DNA of 48,105 nucleotides from Candidatus Woesearchaeota archaeon (GCA_043813525.1 JBDRKY010000115.1:1-48105), one strand, 5' to 3'. Counted from the stretch's first letter, positions 4,819 to 35,227 are shown. Numbers and translations are program-made. The notes: generated by a model not told the origin, from the letters alone.

Positions 4819-4829
4819 TTAAAGTTAAA

Positions 4830-5038: not shown

Positions 5039-5070
5039 ACTGCTGTAGGCAGTTAAGATTAAATAATAAA

Positions 5071-5976: not shown

Positions 5977-8495
5977 AAAAAACAGATTCCATAAACAAAA
6001 GATTACAGAAAAAATCACAGGTCACAGTATTCATCATAATTGGTATAGTGATATTGCTCGCAGTAGGTGCTTTTATTTATATGAAATCCATCACCACAAA
6101 ATCAGGCAGCTCATTATCATTGATACAGGAAGAATCACCTAGAGAATTCAAGCCAATACAAAGCTTTATCACACAATGCCTTAAGGAAGTATCTGAAGAA
6201 GCAATAAGAAAGATAGGAATAGGAGGAGGACATATTGATTTAACTGACCCTTTGTACAGCACAGTAAGCTACAATCTTGATAAACAAAATCCTACTGAAA
6301 GCGATGGCATTATTGTCAGTGATGACCAAAAACTATTGTACTGGAATTATATGTCATCAGGAAATGGCTGTTCTTATAATGGATGTTATGTCAACTTTGA
6401 AGTGCCTGTATTTGATGAGATGAATGTTGAGATTGAGACTTATGTCAATAATAATGTTGAAGCATGCTTTAATAAGTTCACTGCATTTGAAAAAGATGGT
6501 ACAAAGATTACACCATTATCTGATTTTCCTGAAACTACAGTTGATATTGCTAAGAAAGATGTTGTTGTTCAGCTAAAATATCCGATTGATATAAAAAAAG
6601 GCTCATTAAACCACAGATTAGAGTATTATAACATTATACATCCAGTCAATCTAAGAGGGTTTTATGATACTGCTTTTACTATTGCGAATGCAGAGGCAAG
6701 AAACAGGTTCCTTGAGAAAGGAATTCTTTATGTGATGTCATTTTACCGAACAATGGACCCTGAAAAACTACCACCATTGATTGCCTCAAGCTATAAGCCG
6801 GAAAAGATTAAATGGTCAAAAACAGCTGTGAAAACAAAGATACAGGATCTGATAAAAGCTTATACGCCTTTGTTCAAGGTTGAGAACACAAAAAATGGAG
6901 ATAAGATAACATCAGATAAGATTATTGATGATAACATCTACAATTATCTATATCTCAAAAATAGTTATGAATTTCTTAAAGATTATGATATCAGATTCTA
7001 TTATCTTGACTGGCCTCTTTATGTTGATGTTACTCCAAGCAAAGGTGATGAGATATCTCCAGATATGGCAGACCATAATGTTGCAGACCAGATGACAGTA
7101 ACAACAAATAATTACAGATTCATGTATGATATTGCAGCACCTATATTGGTAGAGATCAAGAATAAAGATGATTATGACGGCAAAGGATACAGTTTCTTTT
7201 TTGCTTTAGAAGCTAATATAAAAAATAATTATGATATTTATACACATATGACATATGCAAGCCCAAAACTGCCAGATGATCTGTTTGAGGTTGAGCATCC
7301 TGAAGCTCTCAACAAAGAAAAAAAGATTATGACTGATAATGGAGATGAGATAACAATAGGTCCTGCAGAAAAACTTCCAAATGATCATATTTTCTGTGAA
7401 GATGAACAAAGAGAGGGGCCTAAGATTGATTTCATAATCCAGGAAGATAAGACAAACAAGCCCATAGAGACAGCAAATATATTTCTCATCTGCGGGCCTT
7501 TTTTCCAGTGCAGAATTGGACAGACAGACGCAGACGGCAAAGCAGCAGGTAAACTGCCATACTGCAATGGGGGCGCAATAAAAGTAGAACATAAAGATTA
7601 TCACACTGCATTAAGGCCTTTTGATGAATCAATACCTAACATGGCGCCAGACAAAATAGTTATGAAACTTTCAAAGCCAATCACTAAAAAATTTGTGATG
7701 AGAGTATTGAATTATGAAGACCTGATAAATGTTCCAGACACTATGCTGAAGAACAGCCAGTTCAAACAATTCAGAAAACAATTCAAAGATACATTTGCTT
7801 ATGAAGAATTTGGCAAAAATGTCACAATCACTGCAATGTTTACAAGAATATCTGAAAATGCATACACACCAGATTTTACCAGAGTAGCAAAGATAAACCT
7901 GCTGAGCTCAAAGATGGAAAGTGAGATTGAATTAGTTCCTGCAGATGTGCCATCAGGTTATAATGTAGAAATAATGTATATCAATCATTCAGTGCATATC
8001 ATGCCGTATGAAGATGATGATAATTATTATAATAAAAAAGATGAAGAAACAGGCAAAGAAGTCCATGTAACATCTGAAAAAGTGGATAATACAATGCCAG
8101 GCGCTGCAAGATTAAATGCAGATGATAATTATCCATGGAACATTAATTATAATGATCTTTTGGATCCAGATAAAGATGTAATCATATTTTATATCATAAA
8201 GATGAAGATGCCAGAATATGCTGAAGGAATCAAATATATAGCTGATGCGCCTAAACATTCAAAGAAATACAGATGGTTTATCCAACCAGAGCTGATATCA
8301 TCAAAAGACCTGAAGCCTGCGTTTAAAGGTGGAACAGGAGGTTTACCTTTGGAATCAGGAAATTCAGGCAGTTCTGGCGGAGCTACTGATAGTGATGGCA
8401 CAGAAGGAAATAGTGGAGAAAGCGAAGAAGCACAAAAACAAGAAAAAATTGAGAAATTAATGAAACAGGCATTAGAACAGGGGCAGGTAAAATAA
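5973..8495 (+). CDS. Class III (prepilin-type) signal peptide protein, long form (cassette gene D1)
   Basis: KKSQ-VTVFIIIGIVILL leader; family motif PIQSFITQCL...IGIGGGHI; full-length similarity to 32859-35123; start overlaps the C1 stop. Confidence 0.8.
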   Translation: MKKTDSINKRLQKKSQVTVFIIIGIVILLAVGAFIYMKSITTKSGSSLSLIQEESPREFKPIQSFITQCLKEVSEEAIRKIGIGGGHIDLTDPLYSTVSYNLDKQNPTESDGIIVSDDQKLLYWNYMSSGNGCSYNGCYVNFEVPVFDEMNVEIETYVNNNVEACFNKFTAFEKDGTKITPLSDFPETTVDIAKKDVVVQLKYPIDIKKGSLNHRLEYYNIIHPVNLRGFYDTAFTIANAEARNRFLEKGILYVMSFYRTMDPEKLPPLIASSYKPEKIKWSKTAVKTKIQDLIKAYTPLFKVENTKNGDKITSDKIIDDNIYNYLYLKNSYEFLKDYDIRFYYLDWPLYVDVTPSKGDEISPDMADHNVADQMTVTTNNYRFMYDIAAPILVEIKNKDDYDGKGYSFFFALEANIKNNYDIYTHMTYASPKLPDDLFEVEHPEALNKEKKIMTDNGDEITIGPAEKLPNDHIFCEDEQREGPKIDFIIQEDKTNKPIETANIFLICGPFFQCRIGQTDADGKAAGKLPYCNGGAIKVEHKDYHTALRPFDESIPNMAPDKIVMKLSKPITKKFVMRVLNYEDLINVPDTMLKNSQFKQFRKQFKDTFAYEEFGKNVTITAMFTRISENAYTPDFTRVAKINLLSSKMESEIELVPADVPSGYNVEIMYINHSVHIMPYEDDDNYYNKKDEETGKEVHVTSEKVDNTMPGAARLNADDNYPWNINYNDLLDPDKDVIIFYIIKMKMPEYAEGIKYIADAPKHSKKYRWFIQPELISSKDLKPAFKGGTGGLPLESGNSGSSGGATDSDGTEGNSGESEEAQKQEKIEKLMKQALEQGQVK

Positions 8496-8521
8496 TCTTT
8501 GAATAAATAATATGCAGCAAA

Positions 8522-10456
8522 ATGGTAAATGAAACATTAGTCAAATTCATCAATGAGCATGTTAGCCAAGGCTATACTATGCCTGAGATAAAGGAATATC
8601 TTATCAAGTATGGTTTCAAGGCAAAAGATATTGATGAATCTATTGATTATTTTTACCAAAAACAACAAAATGCACAAGGTTACCAGCAAAATGCACAAGG
8701 ATATCATCAGAAATCACAACCTAATCAGCAGCTTGTGAGATATGTCCATGATAATCTTGCAAAAGGATATACTATAGAACAGATCAGAAATTATCTTCTG
8801 CAATATGGATATGATCATGGATTGATTGAACAGGCAATACAGGCAGCAGAGCCGCAGCAAAAACATGTAAGGCATATTATTGAGATACATCCTAAAACAA
8901 TCGCACATATCTTTGTCATCCTTTTGCTTATTGGTGGGATTTTAGGTGGTGGATATTTTCTAATCGGATTATTTGGCGACAATGGTACACCAGAATTATT
9001 AGATTATGCAATCCAAATAGATAATACAGATATTAAACCAAGTGAAAAGCTTTATTTTGTAAATAAAATAACTAATATGGGTGACAAAAGAAGATATGAC
9101 ATATTCATAGAATTCAGGATAATCAACAAAGAGAGCCTGGAAGAACTGACATCATGGAGCAAAACTTTTGCAATAGATGTGGTTGTAGACAAACCAGAAT
9201 CAGTACTGATCCCTCCAAATGCAGCACCTGGGAAATACACATTACATGGTACTGTTTATTATGGAGATATAACAAACAAAGCTTCCAATACATTCAAAGT
9301 TCTTTCAACAGGTACAACAGAGAGCTGTTTTGATGGCATAATAAATCAGGATGAAGAAGGTAAAGACTGCGGCGGGAAATGCCAGCCATGTGAATCATGT
9401 TATGATGGAAAGCAGAACCAAAATGAAGAAGGTGTTGATTGCGGTGGAGTCTGCAAGAATTGTGAGACATGCTATGACAATAAGAAAAATCAGGATGAAG
9501 AGGAGATAGATTGTGGCGGCATCTGCAATATACCATGTAAAGAAGAGAAAAAAGAAGACGAACAGGAGGTAAAAGAACAGAATGTTATAGATGAGCAGGA
9601 TAAAGAATATGAAACTAATGCTGATGGTGAAAAACAAAGCACTGTTGAACAGCTTGTGTCTGCGAAAGAGATGGCTGGAGCAAACCCTGACAAAGCAGTG
9701 CAGTTATGCAAAGAAATTTCTATCTCTTCTTTAAAAGACAGCTGCATAACAGATGTCGCTAAAAAAAGCGAACAATCAAAATATTGCGCAGAGATTGAGA
9801 TTGACAAAAAAAGAGATCCTTGTTATATGTATTTTGTAACAAATAAAAAAGATTATTTATTATGTGGCAAGATCACAAATGACCTGTATAAAGACAGCTG
9901 TCTTAACCTTAAAAAACTGTCTGTATTACAGGATACTTATGGGGTTGGAGAAGAAAAAAGCAAGACAGCAGCATCTACGCAGATCTCACAATCCACACAG
10001 CAGCCAACAACACAGACAGGACAACAACAATTACAGTCTCCTGAATTGATTCAGCAACCACAGACACAGCCTGCCCAACAACCTGAACAACCAAATCAAC
10101 AGCAACCTAATGAACTAACTCAACAGCAACCTAATGAACCAAATCAACAGCCTTCACAGCTTATACAACAACAGCCACAGCAGGTAATATTCAGCAATAT
10201 CAATTCAATCAAATTAGGCTTTACTAAATTTAAGATAACATGGGTCACAAATATTCCAGTCAAAAGCATAATCAAATATGGAAATTATCAAAGTCTTTTA
10301 GGCAATACAGCATATGATGCAAAGGAAGTGACACAGCATGAGCTGATCCTTGATGAACTCAAGCCAAAAAGAACATATTATTATCAACCTGTCAGTATGG
10401 ATGCACAAGGTAATGTACAGGGTGGTGAAGTCATGAGTTTTGAGACAAAAATATGA
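8522..10456 (+). CDS. Modular single-pass membrane/surface protein (cassette gene E1)
   Basis: Two N-terminal GYTxxxIxxYLxxYG repeats, a TM helix, an Ig/CARDB-like block, 3 x CxDxxxNQxEExxDCGGxC, 3 x CxxIxxxxxxDxC, a Gln-rich linker and an FN3-like C-terminus (KITWVTN...LKPKRTYYY). Confidence 0.8.
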   Translation: MVNETLVKFINEHVSQGYTMPEIKEYLIKYGFKAKDIDESIDYFYQKQQNAQGYQQNAQGYHQKSQPNQQLVRYVHDNLAKGYTIEQIRNYLLQYGYDHGLIEQAIQAAEPQQKHVRHIIEIHPKTIAHIFVILLLIGGILGGGYFLIGLFGDNGTPELLDYAIQIDNTDIKPSEKLYFVNKITNMGDKRRYDIFIEFRIINKESLEELTSWSKTFAIDVVVDKPESVLIPPNAAPGKYTLHGTVYYGDITNKASNTFKVLSTGTTESCFDGIINQDEEGKDCGGKCQPCESCYDGKQNQNEEGVDCGGVCKNCETCYDNKKNQDEEEIDCGGICNIPCKEEKKEDEQEVKEQNVIDEQDKEYETNADGEKQSTVEQLVSAKEMAGANPDKAVQLCKEISISSLKDSCITDVAKKSEQSKYCAEIEIDKKRDPCYMYFVTNKKDYLLCGKITNDLYKDSCLNLKKLSVLQDTYGVGEEKSKTAASTQISQSTQQPTTQTGQQQLQSPELIQQPQTQPAQQPEQPNQQQPNELTQQQPNEPNQQPSQLIQQQPQQVIFSNINSIKLGFTKFKITWVTNIPVKSIIKYGNYQSLLGNTAYDAKEVTQHELILDELKPKRTYYYQPVSMDAQGNVQGGEVMSFETKI

Positions 10457-12802: not shown

Positions 12803-13591
12803 ATGAAATGGGAATTTACTTTGAAAGGCAAGCTGCCAAAACTGAACAAACCAATCTTATTAGAAGGTCTGCCAGGCATGGGTAATGTAGGTAAGGTTGT
12901 TGTAGATTTCCTTATAGATGACCTAAAAGCAAAAAAAGTATATGATATATTTTCCTATCGGCTGCCGCATACTGTTTTTGTGAATGAAAAGAACCTTGTT
13001 GAGCTGCCTTCAATTGAATTATATTATAAGACATTCAATAATCCAAAGAAAAATGACCTTCTGCTGTTAGCTGGCGATGTTCAGCCGTCAGATGAAGAAA
13101 GCAGCTATATGTTCTGTGAACAATTGCTTGATATCATAAAAACATTAGATTGCAGAGAGATAATCACAATAGGAGGCATTGGTTTGCAGGATGTGCCTAA
13201 GAAGCCAAAAGTATATTGCACAGGCAATGCCAAGGATATTGTGCAGAAATATATAAAAGATACAAAAGCATCAGGAGAGATTTATGGTGTTGTAGGGCCT
13301 ATCATAGGTGTTTCTGGCCTGCTTGTCGGGCTTGCTAAGAAAAGAAAGATTGATGCTGTTGCAATGCTTGCTGAGACAATTGCGCATCCAATGTATTTAG
13401 GAGTCAAAGGAGCAAGAGAAGTGCTGAAGATAATCGAAAAAAAGTTAGAGCTTAAAATCAACATAAAAGAGCTTGACAAGGAGATAAAAAACCTTGAGAA
13501 AGAGATACTGAAAACAACACAGGAGCTGAGCCAGATAAGCAAGGAAACTGCAATCAGCAAGCTCAAGAGAGATGTTTCTTATATTGGATGA
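12803..13591 (+). CDS. PAC2 family proteasome assembly chaperone
   Basis: PILLEGLPGMGNVGK, LAGDVQP, ITIGG and GPIIGVSGLL motifs, C-terminal SYIG, adjacent to nop10. Confidence 0.9.
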   Translation: MKWEFTLKGKLPKLNKPILLEGLPGMGNVGKVVVDFLIDDLKAKKVYDIFSYRLPHTVFVNEKNLVELPSIELYYKTFNNPKKNDLLLLAGDVQPSDEESSYMFCEQLLDIIKTLDCREIITIGGIGLQDVPKKPKVYCTGNAKDIVQKYIKDTKASGEIYGVVGPIIGVSGLLVGLAKKRKIDAVAMLAETIAHPMYLGVKGAREVLKIIEKKLELKINIKELDKEIKNLEKEILKTTQELSQISKETAISKLKRDVSYIG

Positions 13592-14653: not shown

Positions 14654-14977
14654 ATGATAATCAAGCTAATCTATCTGATCATAACTTTTGCAGTCTCTGC
14701 AATCCCTCTAAATATCGCTGTGAAAATGCTTGGCGGAAAATCATCATGGCTAAAAGCAATCATAGCAAATATAGCTGTTGCGATATTAAGCTATATGATT
14801 AGCCTGAGGATTACTAAATTCAGTGGACTATTGTCTTTTATTATTCTTCTGCTTATCTATAAATTCATGTTCAGGATTGGATGGTTTAGAGCGTTTATTG
14901 CATGGCTCTTGCAGTTAGGCATAATCGCATTATTCTGGGTAGCTGTGTATTGGTTAATTGGGATAATGCTGTTTTAG
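14654..14977 (+). CDS. Small 4-TM membrane protein
   Basis: 107 aa, almost entirely hydrophobic, with WLKA and WFRA half-repeats. Confidence 0.75.
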   Translation: MIIKLIYLIITFAVSAIPLNIAVKMLGGKSSWLKAIIANIAVAILSYMISLRITKFSGLLSFIILLLIYKFMFRIGWFRAFIAWLLQLGIIALFWVAVYWLIGIMLF

Positions 14978-15072: not shown

Positions 15073-16224
15073 ATGAGATATAGGTTTCTTAACAACATCA
15101 TTGGCGATTTTGCCATTTTAACTACAGGCTTTTGTGCATCGATAGGGGTTATAAGTGATAATGGAATAGATAAAGATGAATGGCTTACCATTAGAGAGCC
15201 AATAGCTATTAATGACGAAGATATTATAAGAACAGATGAAAATACAGATAATCATGCATTAAGTGATCATACATTAAGTGATCATACATTAAGTAGTCAT
15301 GTAATTGAAGCTGTTATAACTAATCAAAATGAGGGATTAGAAGACAAAATAGGAGGCAACATGCTTGATTCATTGCTTTTCTCACAACTTATAGCAAAAT
15401 TATCTGAAAAACCAAACGCAGTAACTTATCAAAGCATAAAATTTCTTGAAACATTATTCCCAGAACAATTCCCCATTGATGATAGATTATATGAAACTCT
15501 TCTTGAAGCCCATATCAGAAATATGATTGCTTCAATACCTGATAAATATGTACCAAAAGGATTTACTGACAGATATTTTGATGATTTCTTTGAAAACTAC
15601 ATAAAAGTATATGGTCACAATAGAATATTTCCTGAAGCGATTATTGTAACAAACAAATCAGTAAAAAGAGGGACAGATCATGTTCATCAAAAATATAGAG
15701 ATAGAAGAAAAAGAAGAGATGGAACATACACAAATAGTGTTTACAATTATTATGGAAGAACACGTGTGTTTATTCCCTCACATTACTTTGCATTTTCTTC
15801 TGAAGAAGTAAAACCATTAAAAACATATAGGACAACATCAGGGAAACATCAGGGTGAAAGGTCTGTAATAGCGACACTTGAGGAAATTAAGGCATTTGAA
15901 AAGCTAAAACCAAAAGAAAGAAGAGAGAAATATGGAATAACAGAGGCAAGAATAACCCCAGAAGGCCTGTTTTGGATAGACCAAATTAATGAAAATCCTA
16001 AATCACAATATGGACCTGCAACCATCTCAATAATGCCCCCTGAATCGAGAAAACTAGAAGAAGATAATACCGCTTATCACGGAAGTAAAGAAAGCAAAAG
16101 CAGAGGCGGGTTCCCAACATTTGGATGCATCAGAATGCCTAATAAAGATGTTGCTGAACTATATACTACATTAACCAGCCTTGAAAATAAAGGGATTGGA
16201 ACATTAGTTATAATAACACCTTAA
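15073..16224 (+). CDS. L,D-transpeptidase-like (YkuD family) protein
   Basis: KTYRTTSG...ITPEGLFWI...AYHG...PTFGCIRMPNKDVAELY...GTLVIITP: His-Gly and Gly-Cys-Ile-Arg catalytic motifs at YkuD-like spacing. Weakly hydrophobic N-terminus. Confidence 0.85.
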   Translation: MRYRFLNNIIGDFAILTTGFCASIGVISDNGIDKDEWLTIREPIAINDEDIIRTDENTDNHALSDHTLSDHTLSSHVIEAVITNQNEGLEDKIGGNMLDSLLFSQLIAKLSEKPNAVTYQSIKFLETLFPEQFPIDDRLYETLLEAHIRNMIASIPDKYVPKGFTDRYFDDFFENYIKVYGHNRIFPEAIIVTNKSVKRGTDHVHQKYRDRRKRRDGTYTNSVYNYYGRTRVFIPSHYFAFSSEEVKPLKTYRTTSGKHQGERSVIATLEEIKAFEKLKPKERREKYGITEARITPEGLFWIDQINENPKSQYGPATISIMPPESRKLEEDNTAYHGSKESKSRGGFPTFGCIRMPNKDVAELYTTLTSLENKGIGTLVIITP

Positions 16225-16233
16225 TATAAATTA

Positions 16234-19200
16234 TTAAGAACCTTTTATAACGACATAAGATGCTGCTTTTTCTTCTGCATTTGCAATTCTTGCAATATCT
16301 TGTTTAGATTGACCTGTTAAAATACCAGCTAAAACAGTTGATGTTGCATCTTTTCCAACTCTAGTTTGAGTTAATAAAAAATCAGTTTGAGGACCCAATG
16401 CACTTTTTAATTTAGGATAAATTCTTCCTTTGCTAAGGCATGCACTAGTTGATACTAAAGATAAAGTAGGGTTTGAATCAACATAATTAGAAAAAACATT
16501 AGGATTAATACCACCTCTAGTCCTATGATATAAACTAAATTGGCCATAAGAAGTACTATGTGAACTAATTGTAAACACATCAACACCACCTTTTGCTAAT
16601 TCCTGTTCTGCTTGCGCTTGAGAATATGCAACAACAACTTCTACATCTAATTGTTTTCCATCACTTCCTTTTATAGGATATTGTTTAGTGAATCTCTTAG
16701 TAGATGGAGAAGATAATTCTTCTGGACCTTCTGGAATAAGAATATTAGCATCATGATAGATAGTAGCACTTGCTTCATCTCTTTTTCCTGCAACATAAAG
16801 AACCCTTAATTTACCATCTTGTATCATATCCATATATTCTTGCCTGATTTCTACACCTTCTGCAACAAGTTCAGGATTAACTAATGAATCTATAAAATTT
16901 CCACTTTGCTCATAAGCAGTCTGCCTATTAAAACGATAATATGGCATAAATCTTGGATTTGTTCTGTCAATAATCGCCTGAAAATGCTTTTGAGGAAGAA
17001 GCACATTGCCTGCTTCAAACTCAAGCGGAACAGTAACATCTTTTGCTGCCTGAGATGGATTTAATCCAGGGACTTTATACAACCCAAACCCAGCAAATTC
17101 TGCTTTTGTTACTGTTGGCTCGTCTTCATCGCCTTCATCTAATTTATCATTATCTAAAGATTCAGACAACTTTTCAGCTCCTTCTTCTTCATCAAGTTCT
17201 GTTTCACTCTTAAACGCATACACTTTTCTGCCAGCAGTAACATCTACATTACCAAAACCTGTAATTTGTATTTTTCCGTCTTTTGCTTTAACTGAACTAT
17301 GATAAAATGTTTTCTGTGTCTTTAAATCAATAGTGCCTTGTGTGTTCTGCAAATAGGCTAATAAAGACTGCCTGCCAAACCTACCGTCTACTTTTATTTT
17401 TCTGCCGTCTAAAATAGTTTTGGATTGCCATTCTTTGACTTTAGCTATTGTCTGCTTATCATAAACACCTGTTTCATCTGCACCTACAGCTCTTTGAACT
17501 CTTATAAGGCTATCATAAGCACCTGTGCCTTGTTTAGGATAATCACCATCTGTAAAATAACCTCTTGAAGGAAGAATCATCATCTCTGTGCCCCATTTGC
17601 CATTTGCAATTTCATTTTTAACCAAAGCAGCTGGATTTATTTTTACCCTTACTTCCTGACCAGCAGACATAATCCCATCCTTTGTAAATTTAACAAAAAG
17701 ATTGCTCTGCTCATCATACCCTACTTTTTGTTCAGGGAAAAATATTTTTGTTCCAGATTTATCATGAGGTAAAACAGTCACATCATTTATTGTTAAAGCA
17801 TTATCCATAGGATCATCTTTAGAGCGAGGAACAACTAATTTAACCTTAGTATCAGCCTGTGAATATTTGTTTAGATTAAATGCTCCTTTAACCTCAAGCA
17901 CACCTTTATCTATTTTTTCACTAACATAATCAACTTCACTTCCATCTGAGTCAATATAAGTATAATCTCCATAAGGCTCATATTTAATTCTTTTAACTGT
18001 TGCAGGTGTGCCATCTTCACTTTGCAGAATTCTAATCTCTGGTCTGGCTCTTGAGTTGGTTTTTCTTCCATTCACTATTTTTTCTTCGCTGCCAACCTTA
18101 TAATAATCATCAACTGTTACATGAGTTGGACTAGCAAACTCTATACCTTGAACTTCTTCAAACTTGCCTGTAAATGCTTTCGAGCCAAAAGTAATATCAC
18201 TGCCGCCTTTAACTTTTACTGCTCTTAATGTACCTTTGCTCATCTTAAACTTGCCAGTTTCTTGATCTAACTTAAGATCACCTGTGAAATCAAGACCAAC
18301 ACTACGCACTGTTTCTGTTTCAGTTTCTTTTATAACAGGCACAATTTTAAGTGCTATTTTTCCTTCCATCTCTCCAATATATTCATAATCAGATGGATTC
18401 ATACCTAAATATTTCATCATAAATTTATAACCTTCAACTCTTTTTGAGATTTCACCTGCTTCTTTTAATTGCTGTGCTGATGCTACTGCATCATAAACAG
18501 GAATAGTTTTAGTTTGTTTTTGTTTTGAAACTACCCTAATTGAACCATCCTCAACAACCTTGATTGCATAATATTCTCTATTTTTTCCAATATAATCATT
18601 GATGTTAATTGCTCCATTTTTACCATTTAACACACCATCGTTTGAAAAAGATTTGACTGGACCTAAAATTCCATATGAATCTACTCCTTCTGATTTCAAA
18701 TATTTGCTGAACAGTTTTCTTGTCTCAGCATTTTCATTGATTAATTTTCCATTTGATTTAGTAAAATATCTTTTAGCTATGCTTCTGTCTGTTGCAGACA
18801 ATGATTTAAGTTTAGTTAAATATGTCTGAAATATCTTTTTATCAGCAGATGTATCAAATTTAGATAATTTTAAATATCTTCTTGCAATATTAAAATCATT
18901 ATTATCTATATAAACACCTTGCTGAAGATAAATCTGCATTAATTTACTGTCAATCTTGCCTTTTCTTAACAAATATTTTTGTGCCTGAGAACGATATACC
19001 ATCATCTGTCCTGGATTTTTCCTAAAAAAATCCTTTGCCAGCGCAGGGTCATCCAATACTGTTCCACCTGTGTATATAACTGTCTGGAACTGATCTACAT
19101 TATAGGCTGCTTTGGGATCTGTCTGCACAAGCTGGATAAGTTCAGCTTGACTGCATTTTGGCGGGCAAACAGCTGAGGCAGACAGAGATACAATTAGAAA

Positions 19201-19248
19201 AACTAAGATTATAATTATAATAAATGAAAGTTTATTAAAGCATTTCAT
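16234..19248 (-). CDS. Secreted multidomain protein with a peptidoglycan-binding-like domain and a possible C-terminal clan CD protease-like domain (cassette gene E2)
   Basis: Signal peptide ending SASA; VQRAVGADETGVYDKQTIAKVKEWQ...VDGRFGRQS (PGBD pattern); C-terminal VFTISSHS...LVSTSACLS. Confidence 0.7.
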   Translation of the reverse strand: MKCFNKLSFIIIIILVFLIVSLSASAVCPPKCSQAELIQLVQTDPKAAYNVDQFQTVIYTGGTVLDDPALAKDFFRKNPGQMMVYRSQAQKYLLRKGKIDSKLMQIYLQQGVYIDNNDFNIARRYLKLSKFDTSADKKIFQTYLTKLKSLSATDRSIAKRYFTKSNGKLINENAETRKLFSKYLKSEGVDSYGILGPVKSFSNDGVLNGKNGAININDYIGKNREYYAIKVVEDGSIRVVSKQKQTKTIPVYDAVASAQQLKEAGEISKRVEGYKFMMKYLGMNPSDYEYIGEMEGKIALKIVPVIKETETETVRSVGLDFTGDLKLDQETGKFKMSKGTLRAVKVKGGSDITFGSKAFTGKFEEVQGIEFASPTHVTVDDYYKVGSEEKIVNGRKTNSRARPEIRILQSEDGTPATVKRIKYEPYGDYTYIDSDGSEVDYVSEKIDKGVLEVKGAFNLNKYSQADTKVKLVVPRSKDDPMDNALTINDVTVLPHDKSGTKIFFPEQKVGYDEQSNLFVKFTKDGIMSAGQEVRVKINPAALVKNEIANGKWGTEMMILPSRGYFTDGDYPKQGTGAYDSLIRVQRAVGADETGVYDKQTIAKVKEWQSKTILDGRKIKVDGRFGRQSLLAYLQNTQGTIDLKTQKTFYHSSVKAKDGKIQITGFGNVDVTAGRKVYAFKSETELDEEEGAEKLSESLDNDKLDEGDEDEPTVTKAEFAGFGLYKVPGLNPSQAAKDVTVPLEFEAGNVLLPQKHFQAIIDRTNPRFMPYYRFNRQTAYEQSGNFIDSLVNPELVAEGVEIRQEYMDMIQDGKLRVLYVAGKRDEASATIYHDANILIPEGPEELSSPSTKRFTKQYPIKGSDGKQLDVEVVVAYSQAQAEQELAKGGVDVFTISSHSTSYGQFSLYHRTRGGINPNVFSNYVDSNPTLSLVSTSACLSKGRIYPKLKSALGPQTDFLLTQTRVGKDATSTVLAGILTGQSKQDIARIANAEEKAASYVVIKGS

Positions 19249-19261
19249 ATTTATTCCTCAA

Positions 19262-20926
19262 TCATTCCTCAATCTCATACTTATCATCAATAATAAATAT
19301 CATATTTTCTGAAGCAAGATAACCATCTTCATCAATAACACCTATTTTTATAGTGTGTTCACCAATATCTTCTTCTTTTGGAGTAAACTCTATCAATCCT
19401 GTATCTTTATTTATTTCAAACAATTCTGTGTCTGCAAAATAAGTTAATTTTGTATCTTTTAATTTATCTGATTCATTATCAATATTTAAAGACTCAAAAC
19501 CAGGAGTTGCTTTTACTTGATATGTAAACAGCTCACCAACAACTGCTTCCTGATAATCAATTGGCTCAATTATAGGGTTAAATAATGGTTTAGTAATTTT
19601 AAGTATGAATTTTGTTGACTTTATATTACCATCATTATCTATTACTGCAATTGTAATCATATTGTCACCAACATCTCTATCTTCGGGAGTAAAATTAATC
19701 AGACCAGTATTTTTATCAATATCAAACATTTCTGAATTATCATAAAACTCTAATCCTAATTTCAATGATTCTTCAATTGCTGAATCTGTAACTATTTCAA
19801 TGTTATTCCCAATATTATTTAACTGATTCATATTTTGTTCAAGACCAATTACTGTTTCAACAGCATAATTAAAATCATAGCCAGATTGTGCATACTGCAC
19901 AGGGATTTGCTTTATTGAGAAGGTGTTTTTAGATTGATATTTTGATTTATTTAAACTCATATCCTCAATTCCTTTACTATATTCATCCTTAATATCAAAG
20001 AAATGGACAAACATAAATGTAACATTTCTTCCGTCAGTATCTTCTTTTGTCAAATAATAAATATCCTGAACAGTATGATTAGGATATAATTTAGTACCAG
20101 GAATTAAAGAAGCTGGAGATGTAGAAGAGACAGAAGATGTAGAAGAGACAGAATCCAATAAAGCAAAATCAATATTTTCAGGCAAAACAACAGTGCCATA
20201 ATCCTCTGATTCTAAATTATTAAAAAATAAGTCATATTTGTCAGCAATTTTCTGCATGCAGGTTAAACATATAGCATTTCCACTGTCTAACTGTTTAAGT
20301 GAATATTCTTCTGCTGCTGCAAATAAAACAGGATAAACACTTTTTATTTCATTTTCAAAAAAACTAATACTATGAACTGTATTGCCAATTGTAATTTTCA
20401 AAGGATAAATCATCTTTACTAAAATAGTATCATCTAATATATTAATATTAATACTAAAATCAGGTAATTTTGATTCTTTTTCAATATTGTATTTTACAAT
20501 GGAAAGATCAATGCAGTCTTTAGCAATTGTTCTCATTCTTTTTGATAACTGCTGTTCTAATACTTCTTTTACAGGGATTAAATCTCTGCCAGAATAAACA
20601 TAAAAAGGAACATAAAACATAATTTCATCAATTAAATAAGGAACAGATAATAAATCTCCACTAGTTTCATCATATTGTATATCATAAAATCCACCTTGGA
20701 GAGAGTTCATTGCTGTAGCTTCTCTTAATGAAATGTCCATACAATTAGTAACAGATTTGTAAAAAGGCATTAATTCTGATGGAACATTTCTTAGATTTTT
20801 ATTAGTTTTTTTCAATATATTGCTATTATGCAAAAAAACAGTCATAGAAATCAAAATTAATACAATTAATGCAAATATGATAAATAATGTCATTGCACCT
20901 TTCTTGTTTAAATTAATACTTACCAT
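19262..20926 (-). CDS. Class III signal peptide protein with two C-terminal Ig/cadherin-like repeats (cassette gene D2)
   Basis: KKGA-MTLFIIFALIVLIL leader; VTNCM...SLQGGFY; 2 x FxIxKxTGLIxFTPxxxDxGxxxIxIxVIDxDG. Confidence 0.8.
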   Translation of the reverse strand: MVSINLNKKGAMTLFIIFALIVLILISMTVFLHNSNILKKTNKNLRNVPSELMPFYKSVTNCMDISLREATAMNSLQGGFYDIQYDETSGDLLSVPYLIDEIMFYVPFYVYSGRDLIPVKEVLEQQLSKRMRTIAKDCIDLSIVKYNIEKESKLPDFSININILDDTILVKMIYPLKITIGNTVHSISFFENEIKSVYPVLFAAAEEYSLKQLDSGNAICLTCMQKIADKYDLFFNNLESEDYGTVVLPENIDFALLDSVSSTSSVSSTSPASLIPGTKLYPNHTVQDIYYLTKEDTDGRNVTFMFVHFFDIKDEYSKGIEDMSLNKSKYQSKNTFSIKQIPVQYAQSGYDFNYAVETVIGLEQNMNQLNNIGNNIEIVTDSAIEESLKLGLEFYDNSEMFDIDKNTGLINFTPEDRDVGDNMITIAVIDNDGNIKSTKFILKITKPLFNPIIEPIDYQEAVVGELFTYQVKATPGFESLNIDNESDKLKDTKLTYFADTELFEINKDTGLIEFTPKEEDIGEHTIKIGVIDEDGYLASENMIFIIDDKYEIEE

Positions 20927-21004: not shown

Positions 21005-21832
21005 TTACATACTTTTTTTCACAACTAATCCCAGATAATGCTTTCCCCAGTTAGCATAACACACAAACACAAGAAGATAGATAAAATAATAAACTTTAGG
21101 CGGAAGGAACTTAATCAATATTACCAAATTGATAATTATAAACAGAATGAATAACAGAATTATGTAAGGTATGATGAATAGGTATATCTTTGCGAATGCA
21201 ACCCTTAAAAATCTGCTGAATGAACTCCCTAAATTATATGATGATTTTAATTTATCTTTACCCATCAATACAAAGACTGCATTGCCTGTATGAGATAGAT
21301 GTACTGTTAAAGGAAGCATAAACAATAATGCGAAGATTGTCTGGTTCTCATCCTTTACATAGATCGCTGTGAAAAAAAACATGATAACAAAAAATAATGC
21401 AATTGCAAAATTTACCAATAAAAGCTTAAGGAAAGTCTTATAATCATATCCTTTACCAAATATCTTTGCCCAGATAAGGCCTTTGAAAAGACTGAAGTTT
21501 GCCAAAAGCAAAAGTAGCACGACAAAAGCAAAGAAACAAAAGACATAGATTGAAGATTTGATCTCCTGCGCCATAACACCGACAGTTTCAAAAGGAAGAT
21601 GCTGCATGCCTTCAACAAAATTTTTTGCCTTGAACAGAAACGCTGCCTTTGGAAGCACAAACCTGACAAAACTGATAAGTATGATGCCAAAGACAAGATA
21701 GTAGATAAGATCATACATCACTGTGAACAGATATGATTTAAACTTCTCAGTATCGCAATCAAAGCTCTGCACAAATGATGTGTTTTTTATGAAATTTAAT
21801 GGTTTCATCTTATATCCCATAATAAACTTCAA
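21005..21832 (-). CDS. Multi-pass membrane protein (cassette gene C2); start uncertain
   Basis: About 6 TM segments; YDLIYY, FKGLIW and NWGKHY align with IDISY, VKALIW and NWGRIY of C1. ATG starts lie at 21820 and 21808. Confidence 0.78.
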   Translation of the reverse strand: MKFIMGYKMKPLNFIKNTSFVQSFDCDTEKFKSYLFTVMYDLIYYLVFGIILISFVRFVLPKAAFLFKAKNFVEGMQHLPFETVGVMAQEIKSSIYVFCFFAFVVLLLLLANFSLFKGLIWAKIFGKGYDYKTFLKLLLVNFAIALFFVIMFFFTAIYVKDENQTIFALLFMLPLTVHLSHTGNAVFVLMGKDKLKSSYNLGSSFSRFLRVAFAKIYLFIIPYIILLFILFIIINLVILIKFLPPKVYYFIYLLVFVCYANWGKHYLGLVVKKSM

Positions 21833-21986: not shown

Positions 21987-22973
21987 ATGATGATAAAATT
22001 AACAATTAAAACAATCAAAGGGAAAAAATATAATTACCTGGAAAAAACAATCAGAATAGGAAAGAAAGTAAGAAAAGTCTCTAAATATATAGGAACAGAT
22101 GAGAATATCAAAAAAAAGAAGATTGAAAAACTTAAGGAAATCTTCAGAAAAGAGCTTTTTGAAAGAACAATGAAAATCAGGGTTAATATAATAACAGAGA
22201 ATATAGATAGATTTGAATACCCTTTATCCAGTGAAGATATTAAAAAAATTGAAGAGATGAATTTCAAACATAAAGAGATCATGAGTAATCTGCATCCAAA
22301 AGATATTGAAGACCTAAATAAGAGATTTATCGCAAATTATGTCTTTGAAAGCAATGCATTAGAAGGAAACTCACTTACATTGAAAAATATAAACGAGATA
22401 ATATTTGAAAACAGAATAAGCAAAGGCAAAGATCTCAGAGAAATATATGATGCGCAAAACTCATATAACTTATTTTTATACTTACAAAAGATCAGAGAGG
22501 AAATCAGTGATAAGCTGATTATAAAAATACATAAATTACTGATGGACAAGATAGATGACAGATTAGGATATAGAAAAATACCAATATTCTTAATAGGCAA
22601 ACCTAACACAAAACTCTCAAAAGCTGATAATGTACAAAAAGATATGGATAATCTCCTCAAATGGTACAAAGATAATGAAAATAAGCTTTATACTTTAGAA
22701 CTAGCATTCAAGTTTCATGCAAAATTTGAAAAGATCCATCCTTTCTGTGACGGCAATGGAAGAGTAGGAAGATTTTTATTGAATTATATATTAATAAGAA
22801 AAGGCTATTTCCCAATAATAATCAGAAAAACAACAAGAAATAGTTATCTTAAAGCACTTGAAGCAGCTGATAGAGATAAATGGATTGTGTTGATGAGATT
22901 TGCCTTAAAACATTATAAAGATACATTCAGAAAATTTTTTGAAGTGTATTATAAGTATGGCAAGAAAGATTAA
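21987..22973 (+). CDS. Fic family protein
   Basis: Canonical HPFCDGNGRVGR motif plus ESNALEGNSLT. Confidence 0.93.
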   Translation: MMIKLTIKTIKGKKYNYLEKTIRIGKKVRKVSKYIGTDENIKKKKIEKLKEIFRKELFERTMKIRVNIITENIDRFEYPLSSEDIKKIEEMNFKHKEIMSNLHPKDIEDLNKRFIANYVFESNALEGNSLTLKNINEIIFENRISKGKDLREIYDAQNSYNLFLYLQKIREEISDKLIIKIHKLLMDKIDDRLGYRKIPIFLIGKPNTKLSKADNVQKDMDNLLKWYKDNENKLYTLELAFKFHAKFEKIHPFCDGNGRVGRFLLNYILIRKGYFPIIIRKTTRNSYLKALEAADRDKWIVLMRFALKHYKDTFRKFFEVYYKYGKKD

Positions 22974-22987
22974 TATATAATGAAGAA

Positions 22988-25900
22988 TCATTTCTTTGTA
23001 AATCCAGTATAACTCAAAGTTCCGCAGTCAATATCACCTTTTTCATTCAATCCAAACGTAGCTCCTGTTAGATGATTGCATATAGGCTCCTTATAATGCT
23101 CATTATCCATAATCTTAAGGCAGACATAATCAAACCTGCACTCTGGTGAATTTTCACAATCAAAAGAAGTATCATCCCCTGCATAATGCATCTGATGAAC
23201 ACCTAAAGGATTATTGACTGCAAACTCATCTTTCCATCCTTTTCCGTCTGCTGATGAAAATGATTTTTTACTAGTGCATTTATTGTATAGATAAACAATA
23301 CCATGCACAGGACCTATTGTTTTCATAGTAAAAGCATAACGATAATACTGATCTGTAATCTTCTCTCTTTCACCGCCAAGCATCACAATAATCTCATTCT
23401 TGTCAAGATAACTCATGTTATGTGCGAAATTATGCTCCTGTGTTATAGATGTTCCCATCAACAAATCAACTTCCTGAGGGCCTGTATTATAATAATCAAC
23501 CTTGCACATAGCACTATATATGCTATTTTCTAATTTTGAGAAAGCATTTCCTGTCCAGTCATCAAGAAGATTGCCAAAAACAGTCTCAACCTGCGACCTA
23601 AACTCAAAATCAAGATTATCATAAAGATTATCCATCCTCTTCTGCGCACCTGAACAATCAGTTCCTGCTTCTTTATTGCTATATTTCGCTGCATCGCATT
23701 TCTTAATCATATTCTCAACAACATCAACAGGATCATCAACACAAGATGTTTTTCCACCAAAAGTTGTGCAATGCTTGTCACCTGTGCTTTTTTGTGTACA
23801 TTCACCCTCTAACTTATCACATCTAACTTTTGTACAGCCCTCTTTGTTTGGTTTGGTACATAACTTATGCTTGCCTTGATTCTCAGAATCATCCTCAACA
23901 TAAACACTTCCCTCAACACCATCTATAATACTTGCATGAGCAAAAGTAAATGATGCCTCTCCTGGATTACATGACGTTGCAGTATCATCACAAGCAGAAA
24001 CATCACCATCCTTATCTAAACCTGCAACATTCGTAGGTGGTTTGTATTCCAATGCTTTTTGTTTGTCTGTTTTTGCTGGTTCTGCTGCTGGTTTTGATGC
24101 TGGTTTTGATGCTGGTTGTTCTGTTGGATTAGTACTATCATTACTATTTTCAATATTTTTATTCACCTCATCTAAAAATTGATTAATTTTTGTTATTAAT
24201 TCATCAGTTAGTGAGCCTTTTTTCAATATTTTTAAGAAATAATCTTTAGCTATAACATTATCACCATTCATCTTCCGTGCAATAGCTGCTTGATATAATA
24301 TACCTAATCTTCCAGTTTCTTTAAATAACTTTTCAAATTCTTTGGCAGCTTCATTATAATTTCCAGAATCAGTATAAAGAGATCTAGCATTAAGGAGACG
24401 TCTGTTTTGTTCTGGGGTAAGATTTGATCGTTGTACTGCTTGAGGCTGCTGTTCTGCATCTGTTGGTGATTCTGTCTGAGCTGTAGCTGTTGTTTTTTCT
24501 GAAGTCTGACTTGGTTTTGAAGCAGATGTATCAACAGTACTAACAGCATTCATACTTTCAAACCCGTCTTTATCATCACTTGGCTTTGCTTTTGCTTTGT
24601 TTTCATTAGTCTTAGGTACATAATTCCCCCCACCAGAATAATATTTAGTCCCAGTCTTATCTACTAAAAGACCATCTGAATCAACATAATATTCATCACT
24701 ACTTCCAGGATTTACAATATATACCCCTTCAACATCTGATGCAAAATAATCAGTACCACCTAAATTAACAACTTTATCTTTATCCCATGATGTCTGATGT
24801 TGGGCTGGTGGTGATTCTGTTAGTGGTTCTGCAGTTGATGCTGATTCTTTACTTACAGGAGGTTGTGGAGCTGTTTGAACAAGAGATGAAGGTTGACCAT
24901 CAGGTGGACTATTAGTTGATGTTGCTAAAAATGAATTACGTGGTTGTTTCAAAACAATACCATTAGATAATTTAACATAAACATAGTCAACATCATTCTC
25001 TTTTGCATTAAAAATAGTTGTACCTGTTTCATGATCAACAGAAATTTTAGTTGCTCCTTTAGGAACAGCATTTACTTTAACAGGAAGCACAACTTGTGTT
25101 TGTGTTACTCCTTGTGTTTGTGCTGGTTTTACTTCTGTTGGTGCTCCTGCTTCTGCTGGTGCTCCTGCTTTTGCTGGTGTTCCTGCTTGTACTGAATCAG
25201 GTCTATTCTTAATTAAAATATCATTAAATTGTTTCAACTGATTGCTTTTAACTTGAGATAATTGCTGAATCTGTTCAGATGTCAAAGGAGTATCATCATT
25301 AAACCAACCACCATCAATGACTGGTTTTCCATCTACAAACTTCACATCTTTATCAAAACCAGTTACCTGAACTTTAATATTGCCATTATCATCAACATAA
25401 AACTTAGTGCCACCAACATCTTTTGGATTTTCTTCTGTTGGTGGTGGAGATATAGGTTGTTGTTGTGCTGATTGTGCTTGTTGTTGTACTGGATTTGCCA
25501 ATTTTGATGGTGGACCCATTTCTAATCCTGCAATTTCCTCTACAATTATAGTTGTACCTTTCGTAGGATCTCCACCTTTGCCAACTGCTACAGTATATTC
25601 AGCATCACCTACAGCATAAGTAACATGTGTTCCTTTTGCTAAAGGCTTGCCATCTGCACCTAAGAAAGCACCTGATGTTCTATCATAAACAGCAATATCA
25701 CCATTTGAAAGTTTGCCTGTTGAAGTATGAGTCTTAACGTTACCATTAGAATCTATGCTTTGATAAGTATTGCCAACCTTAACAACAGCATCTTTCACAG
25801 GAGAACTATATTGATCAAGATAAAGTGTCTCATCACCAACCTTTGTCATGACAACTTTTTTACCATCTAATGTAATATGTGAATCAGCAGAATATGACTG

Positions 25901-27682
25901 ACCATTAAAAATAAACTTTTTCTCACCATTATCTAAAGTAACAACACCAATAAACATCTCTACTGGCTTGCCACTATCTGTTATGTAATACTTGCCTTCA
26001 CCAGGAACAAAGATAACCCCTGCAGGACCAGAATTACTTGGAGTTGTTCCATAAAAAGAAACTGGAACAGTTGGAGCAGATTGACCTGCGTTACCTAATT
26101 GTGATTCCTGCACCATGACATAATGACCTGTTTTATCTGCAATAAGAGTGCCTGGAGCCAACTGCATTAAAGACATACCTTGATTATCTGTTGCAATCTC
26201 AAATAATTGACCGTCTTTTTGAACAACTGGCTTACCATCATGAAGACCATAATCAGCTACATGCTCTTTTCCATATTGATCAACATAATATGTTACCTCA
26301 CCAGATGGAGTTGATTTTGTGACAAAATTTTCAGTGACTACATTTCCACTTGAATCATATAATCCAACCTGAGACTGAGCAGTACCATCAGCATTTACTG
26401 ATTTCGCCTTGTATACAGGACCGCCATTTGCATTCACTCCTTCCTGCTCTAGAATCATCAGCACTTTACCCTCATCCCCTACATATGATTTAGAATTATC
26501 ATCTCCCTGCACCCAGCCAGTAAAACTCGTTATTGGCTCTGAACCTTGTTGATAAACCATATAACTATTTGTTTTTTCATCTAATACAACTGTCTGTCCG
26601 TCTTGTGTTGTCTGTTTAAAATATGTTCTTGGATAACCATTGTTTTCAACCACAACAAGAGTAGAACTATCTTCAAAAACATCACCTTGTTCTAACTGAA
26701 CAATCACACCAGATGGATTACGTTTTGCATAAGTTGTTTTGCCGTTACTATCAACCTTAATAACCAAATTTGGTTTTCCATGCTGATAACCAACATCAAC
26801 AACAGATTGAAAGCCAGTTGAGGTAAATTCCAGCCCATTATTACCGCTATCTCCTAATCCTTGAACATCAACCCCACTAACATAAGCAAGACCAAAATCA
26901 TTAGCTGCTGCTTGTGCCTGACCACTTCCTTCTTTAAGAGTACCATCTTCTATATATCCAAATGTCCCAGAATTTCCACTTCCAGAACTTACAGGTATCT
27001 TAACACCTTTAGGAACTAATTGATATGTTGAATCAGTCTTGATACAAGGTTTGCCACTACATAAATAAACTGATTTTCCAGTAGGTGTTTTAAACATTGT
27101 GGGTTGAACATCAGATGATGTTTTATATTCTTCAACTTTCGGCATACTTTGCTTTGCAGTAGCAACTACTGAAGAATCTTCAATCGTACCAAGTGAATAT
27201 GTCTGTAAATTTTTTGCATTATTTTGAGTCAATATTGTTGACAGATCATTGTCATTGAAATCAGTTGTCAATTGTTCATTATATTCTAAATGAGAAGAAT
27301 ATGAACCATAACCATAATACACTTTGGGCTTATCATCATTAGTTGGCATAACAGTTACAACAAGATTTTGTGAATTATCTAATTTAACATCTAATAATTT
27401 AGCATTAGCATCACCTGTTTTTATGTCATCTGTCCTGAATATATGTCCATTATAAGAATACCATTTTCCTGCTTTTAGGTTATCACCAACATTTACAGGA
27501 ATTGCATTCCCTGATGAACTTCCAGCAATTAATTGAGTTTGTGCTGATTGTGCTAATCCAACAAGATTAGAATCAAATTTAGAATTCTGCTTATATTCTG
27601 GGCTGGTAAAGATAGTCAGGCCTACTATAATCATAGCTAATGTGATAAATATCAATGCTTTTCTGAACTTTTTTTTAGGCAT
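22988..27682 (-). CDS. Very large exported protein (cassette gene B2) with beta-rich repeats, low-complexity linkers, a TPR-like block and a Cys-rich C-terminus
   Basis: 1564-aa ORF with an N-terminal TM/signal; TPR-like YTDSGNYNEAAKEFEKLF...LYQAAIARKMNGD; C-terminal domain resembles 4159-4818. Confidence 0.8.
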   Translation of the reverse strand: MPKKKFRKALIFITLAMIIVGLTIFTSPEYKQNSKFDSNLVGLAQSAQTQLIAGSSSGNAIPVNVGDNLKAGKWYSYNGHIFRTDDIKTGDANAKLLDVKLDNSQNLVVTVMPTNDDKPKVYYGYGSYSSHLEYNEQLTTDFNDNDLSTILTQNNAKNLQTYSLGTIEDSSVVATAKQSMPKVEEYKTSSDVQPTMFKTPTGKSVYLCSGKPCIKTDSTYQLVPKGVKIPVSSGSGNSGTFGYIEDGTLKEGSGQAQAAANDFGLAYVSGVDVQGLGDSGNNGLEFTSTGFQSVVDVGYQHGKPNLVIKVDSNGKTTYAKRNPSGVIVQLEQGDVFEDSSTLVVVENNGYPRTYFKQTTQDGQTVVLDEKTNSYMVYQQGSEPITSFTGWVQGDDNSKSYVGDEGKVLMILEQEGVNANGGPVYKAKSVNADGTAQSQVGLYDSSGNVVTENFVTKSTPSGEVTYYVDQYGKEHVADYGLHDGKPVVQKDGQLFEIATDNQGMSLMQLAPGTLIADKTGHYVMVQESQLGNAGQSAPTVPVSFYGTTPSNSGPAGVIFVPGEGKYYITDSGKPVEMFIGVVTLDNGEKKFIFNGQSYSADSHITLDGKKVVMTKVGDETLYLDQYSSPVKDAVVKVGNTYQSIDSNGNVKTHTSTGKLSNGDIAVYDRTSGAFLGADGKPLAKGTHVTYAVGDAEYTVAVGKGGDPTKGTTIIVEEIAGLEMGPPSKLANPVQQQAQSAQQQPISPPPTEENPKDVGGTKFYVDDNGNIKVQVTGFDKDVKFVDGKPVIDGGWFNDDTPLTSEQIQQLSQVKSNQLKQFNDILIKNRPDSVQAGTPAKAGAPAEAGAPTEVKPAQTQGVTQTQVVLPVKVNAVPKGATKISVDHETGTTIFNAKENDVDYVYVKLSNGIVLKQPRNSFLATSTNSPPDGQPSSLVQTAPQPPVSKESASTAEPLTESPPAQHQTSWDKDKVVNLGGTDYFASDVEGVYIVNPGSSDEYYVDSDGLLVDKTGTKYYSGGGNYVPKTNENKAKAKPSDDKDGFESMNAVSTVDTSASKPSQTSEKTTATAQTESPTDAEQQPQAVQRSNLTPEQNRRLLNARSLYTDSGNYNEAAKEFEKLFKETGRLGILYQAAIARKMNGDNVIAKDYFLKILKKGSLTDELITKINQFLDEVNKNIENSNDSTNPTEQPASKPASKPAAEPAKTDKQKALEYKPPTNVAGLDKDGDVSACDDTATSCNPGEASFTFAHASIIDGVEGSVYVEDDSENQGKHKLCTKPNKEGCTKVRCDKLEGECTQKSTGDKHCTTFGGKTSCVDDPVDVVENMIKKCDAAKYSNKEAGTDCSGAQKRMDNLYDNLDFEFRSQVETVFGNLLDDWTGNAFSKLENSIYSAMCKVDYYNTGPQEVDLLMGTSITQEHNFAHNMSYLDKNEIIVMLGGEREKITDQYYRYAFTMKTIGPVHGIVYLYNKCTSKKSFSSADGKGWKDEFAVNNPLGVHQMHYAGDDTSFDCENSPECRFDYVCLKIMDNEHYKEPICNHLTGATFGLNEKGDIDCGTLSYTGFTKK

Positions 27683-28797: not shown

Positions 28798-28864
28798 AAC
28801 CCCACCTAATTAAATATATATTATAATCTGTGAATGAACCAAATTAAAAAAAAGGATATCTTAA

Positions 28865-32821: not shown

Positions 32822-32858
32822 TTTAATCACAATTATTTTAGCTTGAAACTTCAAGCCT

Positions 32859-35123: not shown

Positions 35124-35227
35124 TATATTAACACCTTCGATTATATAAACCATTTGCAGTATACTATATAAATGTTTTGGAATTTTGAGGCTGGGTCCAA
35201 GTTCGGGCTTTTAGATATTAATATTAT

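Follow-up and report, generated by a model that had tools for sequence, protein, structure and literature searches.

Why would an archaeon carry, facing each other, two genes whose predicted products bear domains typical of proteins that act on peptidoglycan? This question is raised by a contig of a Candidatus Woesearchaeota archaeon (GCA_043813525.1, JBDRKY010000115.1:1-48105), contig C115 of the genome bin G000, the entire 48,105 bases of which constitute the window analysed here. Within it, a plus-strand gene for a 383-aa YkuD-family protein converges with a minus-strand gene for a 1004-aa secreted multidomain protein of a rare family (Table 1). A preliminary description, made from the sequence alone, had placed the two genes nine nucleotides apart and named the second one as the last gene of its cassette; the open reading frame (ORF) coordinates agree, with nine bases between the facing stop codons, and the large-protein gene is the most downstream one in a minus-strand run from 35153 to 16234. 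By a narrow preference, we read the pair as an accessory surface module directed at foreign murein, with the wall of a bacterium, be it partner or victim, as the most likely target. The evidence for each protein is presented first, followed by their genomic setting and by the readings that compete with this one.

The first gene encodes a YkuD-fold enzyme with a complete His/Cys/Arg site. Its product matched the Pfam family YkuD (PF03734) with 37.2 bits (E = 5.3e-9, cut-off 23.4; 38.5 bits in the genome search), and the HG and GCIRM motifs pointed out previously were intact as 'YHGS' and 'FGCIRM'. When aligned with 17 other YkuD proteins, T295, P296, H336, G337, G351, C352 and R354 were invariant in all 18 sequences, and phmmer aligned TPEG...YHGS...FGCIRMPNKDV with the corresponding stretch of Bacillus subtilis YkuD. 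Searching the PDB sequences returned weak YkuD matches only (E 0.028-0.061), NCBIfam held no match for either this or the 1004-aa protein, and the word-index homologue search returned the query alone; scanning the contigs of other genomes found no relative with the single sequence and two loci with a three-sequence alignment. An AlphaFold model was obtained with a mean predicted local distance difference test (pLDDT) score of 67.7, the catalytic domain being mostly at 80-95. Its best Foldseek match was B. subtilis YkuD itself (1y7m, E = 1.1e-5, template-modelling score 0.52 on the target), and in VIA, a structure search independent of Foldseek, the top 20 rows were all YkuD-fold proteins with Z-scores from 12.0 to 6.7, the next row falling to 4.0. 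Both the profile search and the structure prediction of the His/Cys site, which had been proposed as checks, returned the YkuD family and fold.

Csd6 of Helicobacter pylori (Z 12.0), Pgp2 of Campylobacter jejuni (11.9) and Bd1075 of Bdellovibrio (11.8) headed the VIA rows, followed at 11.5-6.7 by L,D-transpeptidases, DpaA and Tlde1a. Because these three proteins, which we take to be L,D-carboxypeptidases, are tied with the transpeptidases within one Z unit, the fold does not discriminate a carboxypeptidase from a transpeptidase. The structural match begins near residues 150-188, i.e. before the Pfam start, and the alignment with the three best matches reaches the helix that precedes the catalytic domain; unlike them, the window enzyme has no NTF2-like C-terminal domain. 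Along the chain, a weakly hydrophobic segment (residues 9-27) is followed by a low-confidence stretch to about residue 76, a helical part to about residue 185 and then the catalytic domain; the helices at residues 130-185 were modelled confidently and had no clear structural match, and the N-terminal helical region is unique to the three Woesearchaeal orthologues. With the bacterial L,D-transpeptidases (B. subtilis YkuD, E. faecium Ldtfm and M. tuberculosis LdtMt1/2) the enzyme shares the Pfam family, the fold and the TP-G ... HG ... GC-x-R motif, whereas it differs from them in its archaeal host without detected murein synthesis genes, in the lack of LysM or peptidoglycan-binding domain (PGBD) on the chain, in its own N-terminal helical region and in its low Pfam score (37 bits, versus 50-90 bits for other Woesearchaeal YkuD ORFs). 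A YkuD fold aimed at the wall of another cell is represented by the Salmonella type VI effector Tlde1a (PDB 7uma, Z 7.0), which has an antibacterial role; it is a weaker match than the housekeeping enzymes, and is delivered by a type VI secretion system as against a Sec-type signal here.

Export of the 1004-aa protein, which the preliminary description had called secreted, is supported by a predicted signal at its N-terminus, MKCFNKLSFIIIIILVFLIVSLSASA, with a strong hydrophobic core (3.04), and a CPPxC motif follows the signal peptide in four of five aligned orthologues. HMMER, run in full against 1.84 billion representatives, yielded 20 matches at E<=0.001, the query included. Three relatives are full-length, with 35-38% identity, and the remaining ones share just two modules, at about residues 143-253 (module A) and about 505-640. 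The word-index search returned one relative, and the PDB sequence search with the profile of the large protein gave no match.

The PGBD-like segment previously noted at 17352-17545 lies inside residues 565-635, where homology and fold lend it support and the Pfam score does not. When six orthologous segments were compared by hhalign with certified PG_binding_1 segments (P0017, P0015, P0014, P0006 and P0019, each above the Pfam cut-off), a probability of 98.8% and an E-value of 7.2e-17 were obtained over 54 columns, a test that is not independent since the certified segments stem from proteins that phmmer had already returned as relatives. Among 21 family members, PG_binding_1 was matched in nine at E<=0.01 and in five above the cut-off. 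Modelling of residues 555-1004 gave the segment a pLDDT of 79-89, and VIA matched it to eight solved PG_binding_1 domains (Z 7.3, 7.2, 7.1, 6.5, 6.4, 6.3, 6.0 and 6.0, moderate values for a small domain) at a root-mean-square deviation (rmsd) of 1.9-3.4 Å over 59-67 residues; these are 1lbu (Z 7.3), 5nm7 (7.2), 6tci (7.1; 1.9 Å over 61 residues), 4xxt, 9h68, 4c2c, 4lpq and 5tv7. Speaking against the assignment, besides the dependence of the hhalign test, the Pfam model PG_binding_1 (PF01471) scored 13.7 bits on the window protein (E = 0.072), below its cut-off of 23; a second scoring gave 16.3 bits, reaching 23.1 only when neighbouring stretches in frame were summed, and there was no match at E<=0.001. 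On homology and modelled fold taken together, we accept residues 565-635 as a divergent PGBD. What is joined to this domain varies within the family: a distant relative, P0015, has two PG_binding_1 repeats fused to a YkuD domain on one chain, and P0016 and P0017 carry DUF1615 at the end where the window protein has a His/Cys domain, which suggests that the family keeps its scaffold and PGBD constant while exchanging the C-terminal domain.

That C-terminal domain, residues 803-1004, did not figure in the preliminary description. Its two residues invariant in six orthologues, in DVFTISSH(897) and LVSTSAC(937), each follow a hydrophobic strand (strands 337-340 and 377-380 of the model, at low pLDDT), so the His-then-Cys order with each residue at the end of a hydrophobic beta-strand is as found in clan CD, i.e. 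CHAT proteases, caspases, metacaspases, separase, legumain and GPI transamidase. The best VIA match was the SAVED-CHAT protease 8tl0 (Z 7.9, 157 residues aligned), and clan CD accounted for 19 of 42 structural rows, 8tl0 included, with caspases, metacaspases, separases, legumain-type enzymes, MALT1, c-FLIP and GPI transamidase among them; a protein-language-model search (Atlas) offered leads only, to CHAT (0.89-0.90) and Peptidase_C25 (0.87). On the other side of the balance, the other 23 rows were Rossmann-like proteins of other kinds, the best Z of 7.9 lies within the range that VIA calls common, and the model is poor, with a mean pLDDT of 53.7 and values below 50 around His897 and Cys937. 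Unlike clan CD members, the domain had no sequence match: Pfam gave nothing usable at E<=10, NCBIfam nothing, and a PDB search with the domain's profile chance-level matches only. We also know of no clan CD architecture that includes a PGBD fusion. A small-GTPase identity returned by Foldseek, contrary to a peptidase, was set aside as uninformative, with an rmsd of about 12 Å on a low-confidence model. From the modelled fold and the residue pattern, we hold with slightly better than even confidence that the domain is a clan-CD-like cysteine peptidase or transpeptidase.

Could such a pair be a bacterial segment misplaced in an archaeal assembly? The bin comprises 1.65 Mb in 119 contigs, with 89.7% completeness and 2.65% estimated contamination, and contains archaeal small- and large-subunit rRNA on contig C3. 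Compared with the genome, the tetranucleotide profile of C115 correlated at 0.988 (rank 24 among 64 contigs of at least 10 kb) and that of the 12-24 kb part of the window at 0.98. A PAC2 gene (12803-13591) and gyrB lie just upstream of the pair, several neighbouring ORFs begin with archaeal pilin-type signals, and two related Woesearchaeota loci hold the same arrangement of pair and neighbours. Two groundwater DNA runs of one study contain 0.46 and 0.23 of the sampled words of the window, in contigs of 222-631 nucleotides that are identical or nearly so to it; among the runs listed as containing it there is no RNA run. The contig is archaeal and not chimeric, in accordance with the rRNA, the composition, PAC2 and the orthologous loci, and the organism is an archaeon as previously described. 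An error of assembly or binning has in its favour the fragmented bin with its contamination estimate and the shortness of the public-run contigs, none of which spans the 16224/16234 junction; with the same pair beside gyrB, PAC2, membrane proteins and a pilin-like protein in two assemblies of related genera, and with a fitting composition and pilin-type N-termini around it, we regard such an error as next to negligible.

No route to a wall of its own was found in the genome that hosts the pair. No PBP transpeptidase and no FtsW/RodA match were found in the 89.7%-complete G000, nor any Mur ligase, the one Mur-ligase-like ORF being FolC (337 bits). Exported enzymes directed at a foreign murein are the most economical reading. 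Two ORFs with SLT domains are present, on contigs C99 (L039) and C35 (L040); the one on C99, of at least 708 aa, also has a GDSL lipase/acylhydrolase domain. YkuD domains are not confined to this genome: within the order 29 of 201 genomes have one, and in a sample of the phylum 52 of 301 do, several of these being assemblies of few contigs. Among ten scanned ORFs, a CE4 deacetylase domain was fused to YkuD in two and a wall-binding domain in none. At loci L010 and L011, which come from two genomes of a single genus within the order, YkuD and Polysacc_deac_1 (CE4) share a chain, giving the Woesearchaeales a second combination of wall-modifying domains.

Linkage of the two genes was followed in 24 other genomes of the same family as G000. 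Full-length orthologues of the large protein were found in two of them, G009 and G019, and YkuD orthologues spanning the catalytic domain in the same two; G017 (76% complete) had a partial YkuD match only, at residues 92-196. In every carrier the pair is adjacent and convergent, and the carriers span three genera, which are kin and not independent. The G009 locus reads membrane protein, nucleotidyltransferase, HEPN, pilin-like immunoglobulin (Ig)-repeat protein, 1033-aa orthologue, convergent 345-aa YkuD orthologue and 107-aa membrane protein; locus L043 reads PAC2, gyrB, a YkuD protein of 517 aa (32.8 bits in Pfam), convergent with it an orthologue of the large protein that has 1043 aa and 31% identity (E = 7e-139), then an Ig-domain protein of 487 aa and an ORF of 255 aa. 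By tblastn at E<=1e-5, neither gene has a paralogue elsewhere in G000. With both genes present or both not found in the 25 family genomes, joint inheritance is suggested.

Several results weigh against a foreign-murein target. The N-terminal hydrophobic segment of the window YkuD is weak (1.86), its G009 orthologue having a clear Sec-like N-terminus; G000 has no match to S66 LD-carboxypeptidases or Amidase_2; across 200 other genomes of the order, Pfam matches placed YkuD in 3 of 14 genomes with PG_binding_1 and in 25 of 186 without it, i.e. no enrichment, in a sample where the PG_binding_1 model misses divergent PGBDs like that of the window; and a GT51-like glycosyltransferase ORF, unexpected in G000, leaves room for some glycan polymer of the cell's own. 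The lack of enrichment bears on a view in which the two genes have nothing to do with each other, both having been obtained from bacteria and retained for different purposes or for no purpose, their adjacency being functionally meaningless. It agrees with a spacing that varies from 9 nucleotides in the window to 293 in G009 and a 4-nucleotide overlap in L043, and with the convergent orientation, owing to which the pair is not co-transcribed. The joint presence within the family, the adjacency in three genera (kin as they are) and the PGBD-YkuD fusion in P0015 make it distinctly unlikely. The GT51 ORF bears on another view, that the archaeon builds its own murein-like polymer with GT51 and YkuD and that the pair is housekeeping wall machinery. 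This ORF (contig C51 bases 1-1467, L044; at least 489 aa, truncated at the contig end) matched Pfam Transgly with 127.6 bits and NCBIfam PBP_1a_fam with 149 bits, below the cut-off of the latter, and the composition of C51 fits the bin (r = 0.974). We consider such housekeeping very unlikely, given the missing Mur ligases, PBP transpeptidase and FtsW/RodA described above and the occurrence of the pair in 2 of 24 other family genomes, a patchiness unlike that of essential wall machinery.

The genes around the pair bring in a further alternative. The gene for a 554-aa pilin-like protein lies 13 nucleotides upstream of the 1004-aa gene on the same strand, followed in turn by the gene for a 275-aa membrane protein, whose position in L043 is taken by the 255-aa ORF without known family. 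Known hosts of DPANN archaea, to which the Woesearchaeota belong, are archaea (PMC8204110, PMC11537232), and the pair might act on an archaeal envelope, either the cell's own surface proteins and pilus-like fibres or the wall of another archaeon serving as host, for instance a methanogen with pseudomurein, with the YkuD and clan-CD-like domains serving as protein transpeptidases that cross-link or process surface proteins. The conserved order, with the large gene directly downstream of the pilin-like Ig-repeat protein and the membrane protein, would suit this function, as would the divergence of the PGBD and the transamidases of clan CD, legumain-type ligase and GPI transamidase being among the structural matches. 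Nevertheless, we think it unlikely: the solved YkuD-fold matches are all murein enzymes, related PGBDs within this protein network score above the PG_binding_1 cut-off, and no pseudomurein-binding family was matched in Pfam at E<=0.1. To our knowledge, pseudomurein peptides also contain no L,D bond of the kind attacked by YkuD enzymes.

Returning to foreign murein as the favoured target, a sequence of events may be outlined. The large protein would be exported and dock on exposed peptidoglycan through its PGBD, where the Cys/His domain at its C-terminus, a probable cysteine peptidase or transpeptidase of clan-CD type, would cut wall-associated peptides or proteins. Cys352 of the YkuD enzyme would make its attack on tetrapeptide stems at the L,D bond linking residue 3 to D-Ala4 and, because there is no own wall to cross-link, the acyl-enzyme would most likely be resolved by water or a free amine, amounting by analogy to an L,D-carboxypeptidase or exchange activity. 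Csd6, Pgp2, Bd1075 and Tlde1 have activities of this kind. By these steps the foreign wall could be trimmed or remodelled for attachment, access or amino-acid scavenging. The preliminary description had proposed that the organism binds to, anchors on or remodels bacterial cell walls, which would imply a bacterial host or prey, and the peptidoglycan-type domains, the intact YkuD site, the archaeal contig and the lack of detected murein synthesis in G000 all accord with it; that the target is bacterial is what we infer, and action on bacterial walls is plausible.

A bolder variant is conceivable. Bacterial L,D-transpeptidases staple Braun's lipoprotein to the wall, and the conserved block of membrane protein, pilin-like Ig-repeat adhesin, PGBD-tethered caspase-like transpeptidase or protease and secreted YkuD might similarly be a covalent grappling device, in which YkuD, the clan-CD-like domain or both would staple an archaeal surface protein to stem peptides in the wall of a bacterial host. 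We rate this a long shot; if true, cells from two domains of life would be joined covalently.

The general idea that Woese- and Pacearchaeota deal with bacterial walls is already published (PMC8204110, PMC9723730 and PMC12352652). Large SLT-domain proteins of the two lineages have been interpreted as serving to bind or degrade the walls of bacteria (Castelle et al. 2021, PMC8204110; Vigneron et al. 2022, PMC9723730). The large protein of the window resembles such giant murein lytic-transglycosylase proteins in size, in predicted extracellular location and in lineage, and differs from them in that neither window protein has an SLT match and that the chemistry in the window would target the peptide, not the glycan. 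Modular peptidoglycan hydrolases were found in about 5% of archaeal genomes, prominent in Nanoarchaeota and patchy in distribution, and two of them kill a bacterium (Strock et al. 2025, PMC12352652); the window proteins are like them in their patchy distribution and, as predicted, in being secreted, murein-directed proteins of an archaeon. To be counted in that screen, a protein has to combine two Pfam domains, one catalytic and one wall-binding. Neither window protein fits this definition, because a binding domain is missing from the YkuD chain, while the other chain has a sub-threshold PGBD and a catalytic candidate that belongs to no Pfam family. A muramoyltetrapeptide carboxypeptidase is reported from Pacearchaeota (PMC11537232). 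No description of archaeal YkuD enzymes was found in the literature searched, the supplementary tables of which may list them. What the present locus adds as new is the peptide-directed YkuD arm, the architecture of PGBD plus His/Cys domain, and the conserved block with a pilin-like adhesin.

Table 1. Features of the pair and its flanking genes in the window (positions counted from the first base of the contig; res, residues)
Feature	Position	Strand	Basis
107-aa membrane protein, upstream of the YkuD gene	14654..14977	+	close homologue beside the YkuD gene in G009
YkuD-family gene, 383 aa	15073..16224	+	ORF, Pfam, hydrophobicity, model
YkuD catalytic domain, res 246-381 by Pfam	15808..16215	+	Pfam, Foldseek, VIA
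His336-Gly337, catalytic motif	16078..16083	+	invariant in 18 sequences; aligned to HG of B. subtilis YkuD
Gly351-Cys352-Ile-Arg354-Met, catalytic cysteine motif	16123..16137	+	G351, C352 and R354 invariant; aligned to GCIRM of B. subtilis YkuD
9-nucleotide spacer between the facing stop codons of the two genes	16225..16233		ORF coordinates
1004-aa secreted multidomain protein, rare family	16234..19248	-	ORF; family search
C-terminal alpha/beta domain, res 803-1004, tentatively caspase/CHAT-like (clan CD)	16237..16842	-	invariance, model, VIA, Atlas leads
Cys937	16438-16440	-	invariant in six orthologues
His897	16558-16560	-	invariant in six orthologues
PG_binding_1-like three-helix domain, res 565-635	17344..17556	-	Pfam sub-threshold, hhalign, VIA
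Module A, res 143-253, conserved and common to other large PG_binding_1 proteins	18490..18822	-	phmmer stretches, alignment columns
Sec-type signal peptide (predicted), about res 1-26	19171..19248	-	hydrophobicity 3.04
554-aa protein, pilin-like (class III-type) N-terminus and Ig/cadherin-like repeats	19262..20926	-	kept in two related loci
275-aa polytopic membrane protein	21005..21832	-	clear homologue in G009 locus

Beyond these features, the window contains several other noteworthy genes. A Fic/DOC family gene (76 bits; 21987-22973, plus strand) splits the minus-strand run, sitting between the 275-aa membrane protein and a 1564-aa protein. Giant secreted proteins form two paralogous sets, at 266-10456 (plus strand) and 22988-35153 (minus strand), with 25% identity both between the 1298-aa and 1341-aa members (E = 1e-24) and between the 840-aa and 764-aa members (E = 1e-39); several of them begin with pilin-type signals (KRGQITIF, KKSQVTVF, KSAQATIF), and for most proteins of both sets no Pfam family was found. 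A nucleotidyltransferase-HEPN pair is embedded in the minus-strand cassette (27675-28797, minus strand), and a comparable one occurs in the G009 locus (L041, 1209-2306) between the membrane protein and the pilin-like protein. At 36450-40139 (plus strand), a 1229-aa fusion unites methionine-synthase modules (S-methyl_trans, Pterin_bind and B12-binding) with a C-terminal MTHFR domain.

Both proteins would be missed by a domain screen like that of PMC12352652 and, if active on murein, they would count as new antibacterial candidates. The hosts of DPANN archaea are still being worked out, and the case for bacterial ones in Woese- and Pacearchaeota has hitherto come chiefly from SLT domains, which cut glycan. 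The locus adds a peptide-directed arm, namely YkuD, a domain that roughly one in six of the phylum's sampled genomes contains, together with a rare PGBD protein that has a new candidate cysteine-peptidase end; conservation of the pair, along with small domains that lend themselves to expression, makes the hypothesis that these archaea act on bacterial walls directly testable.

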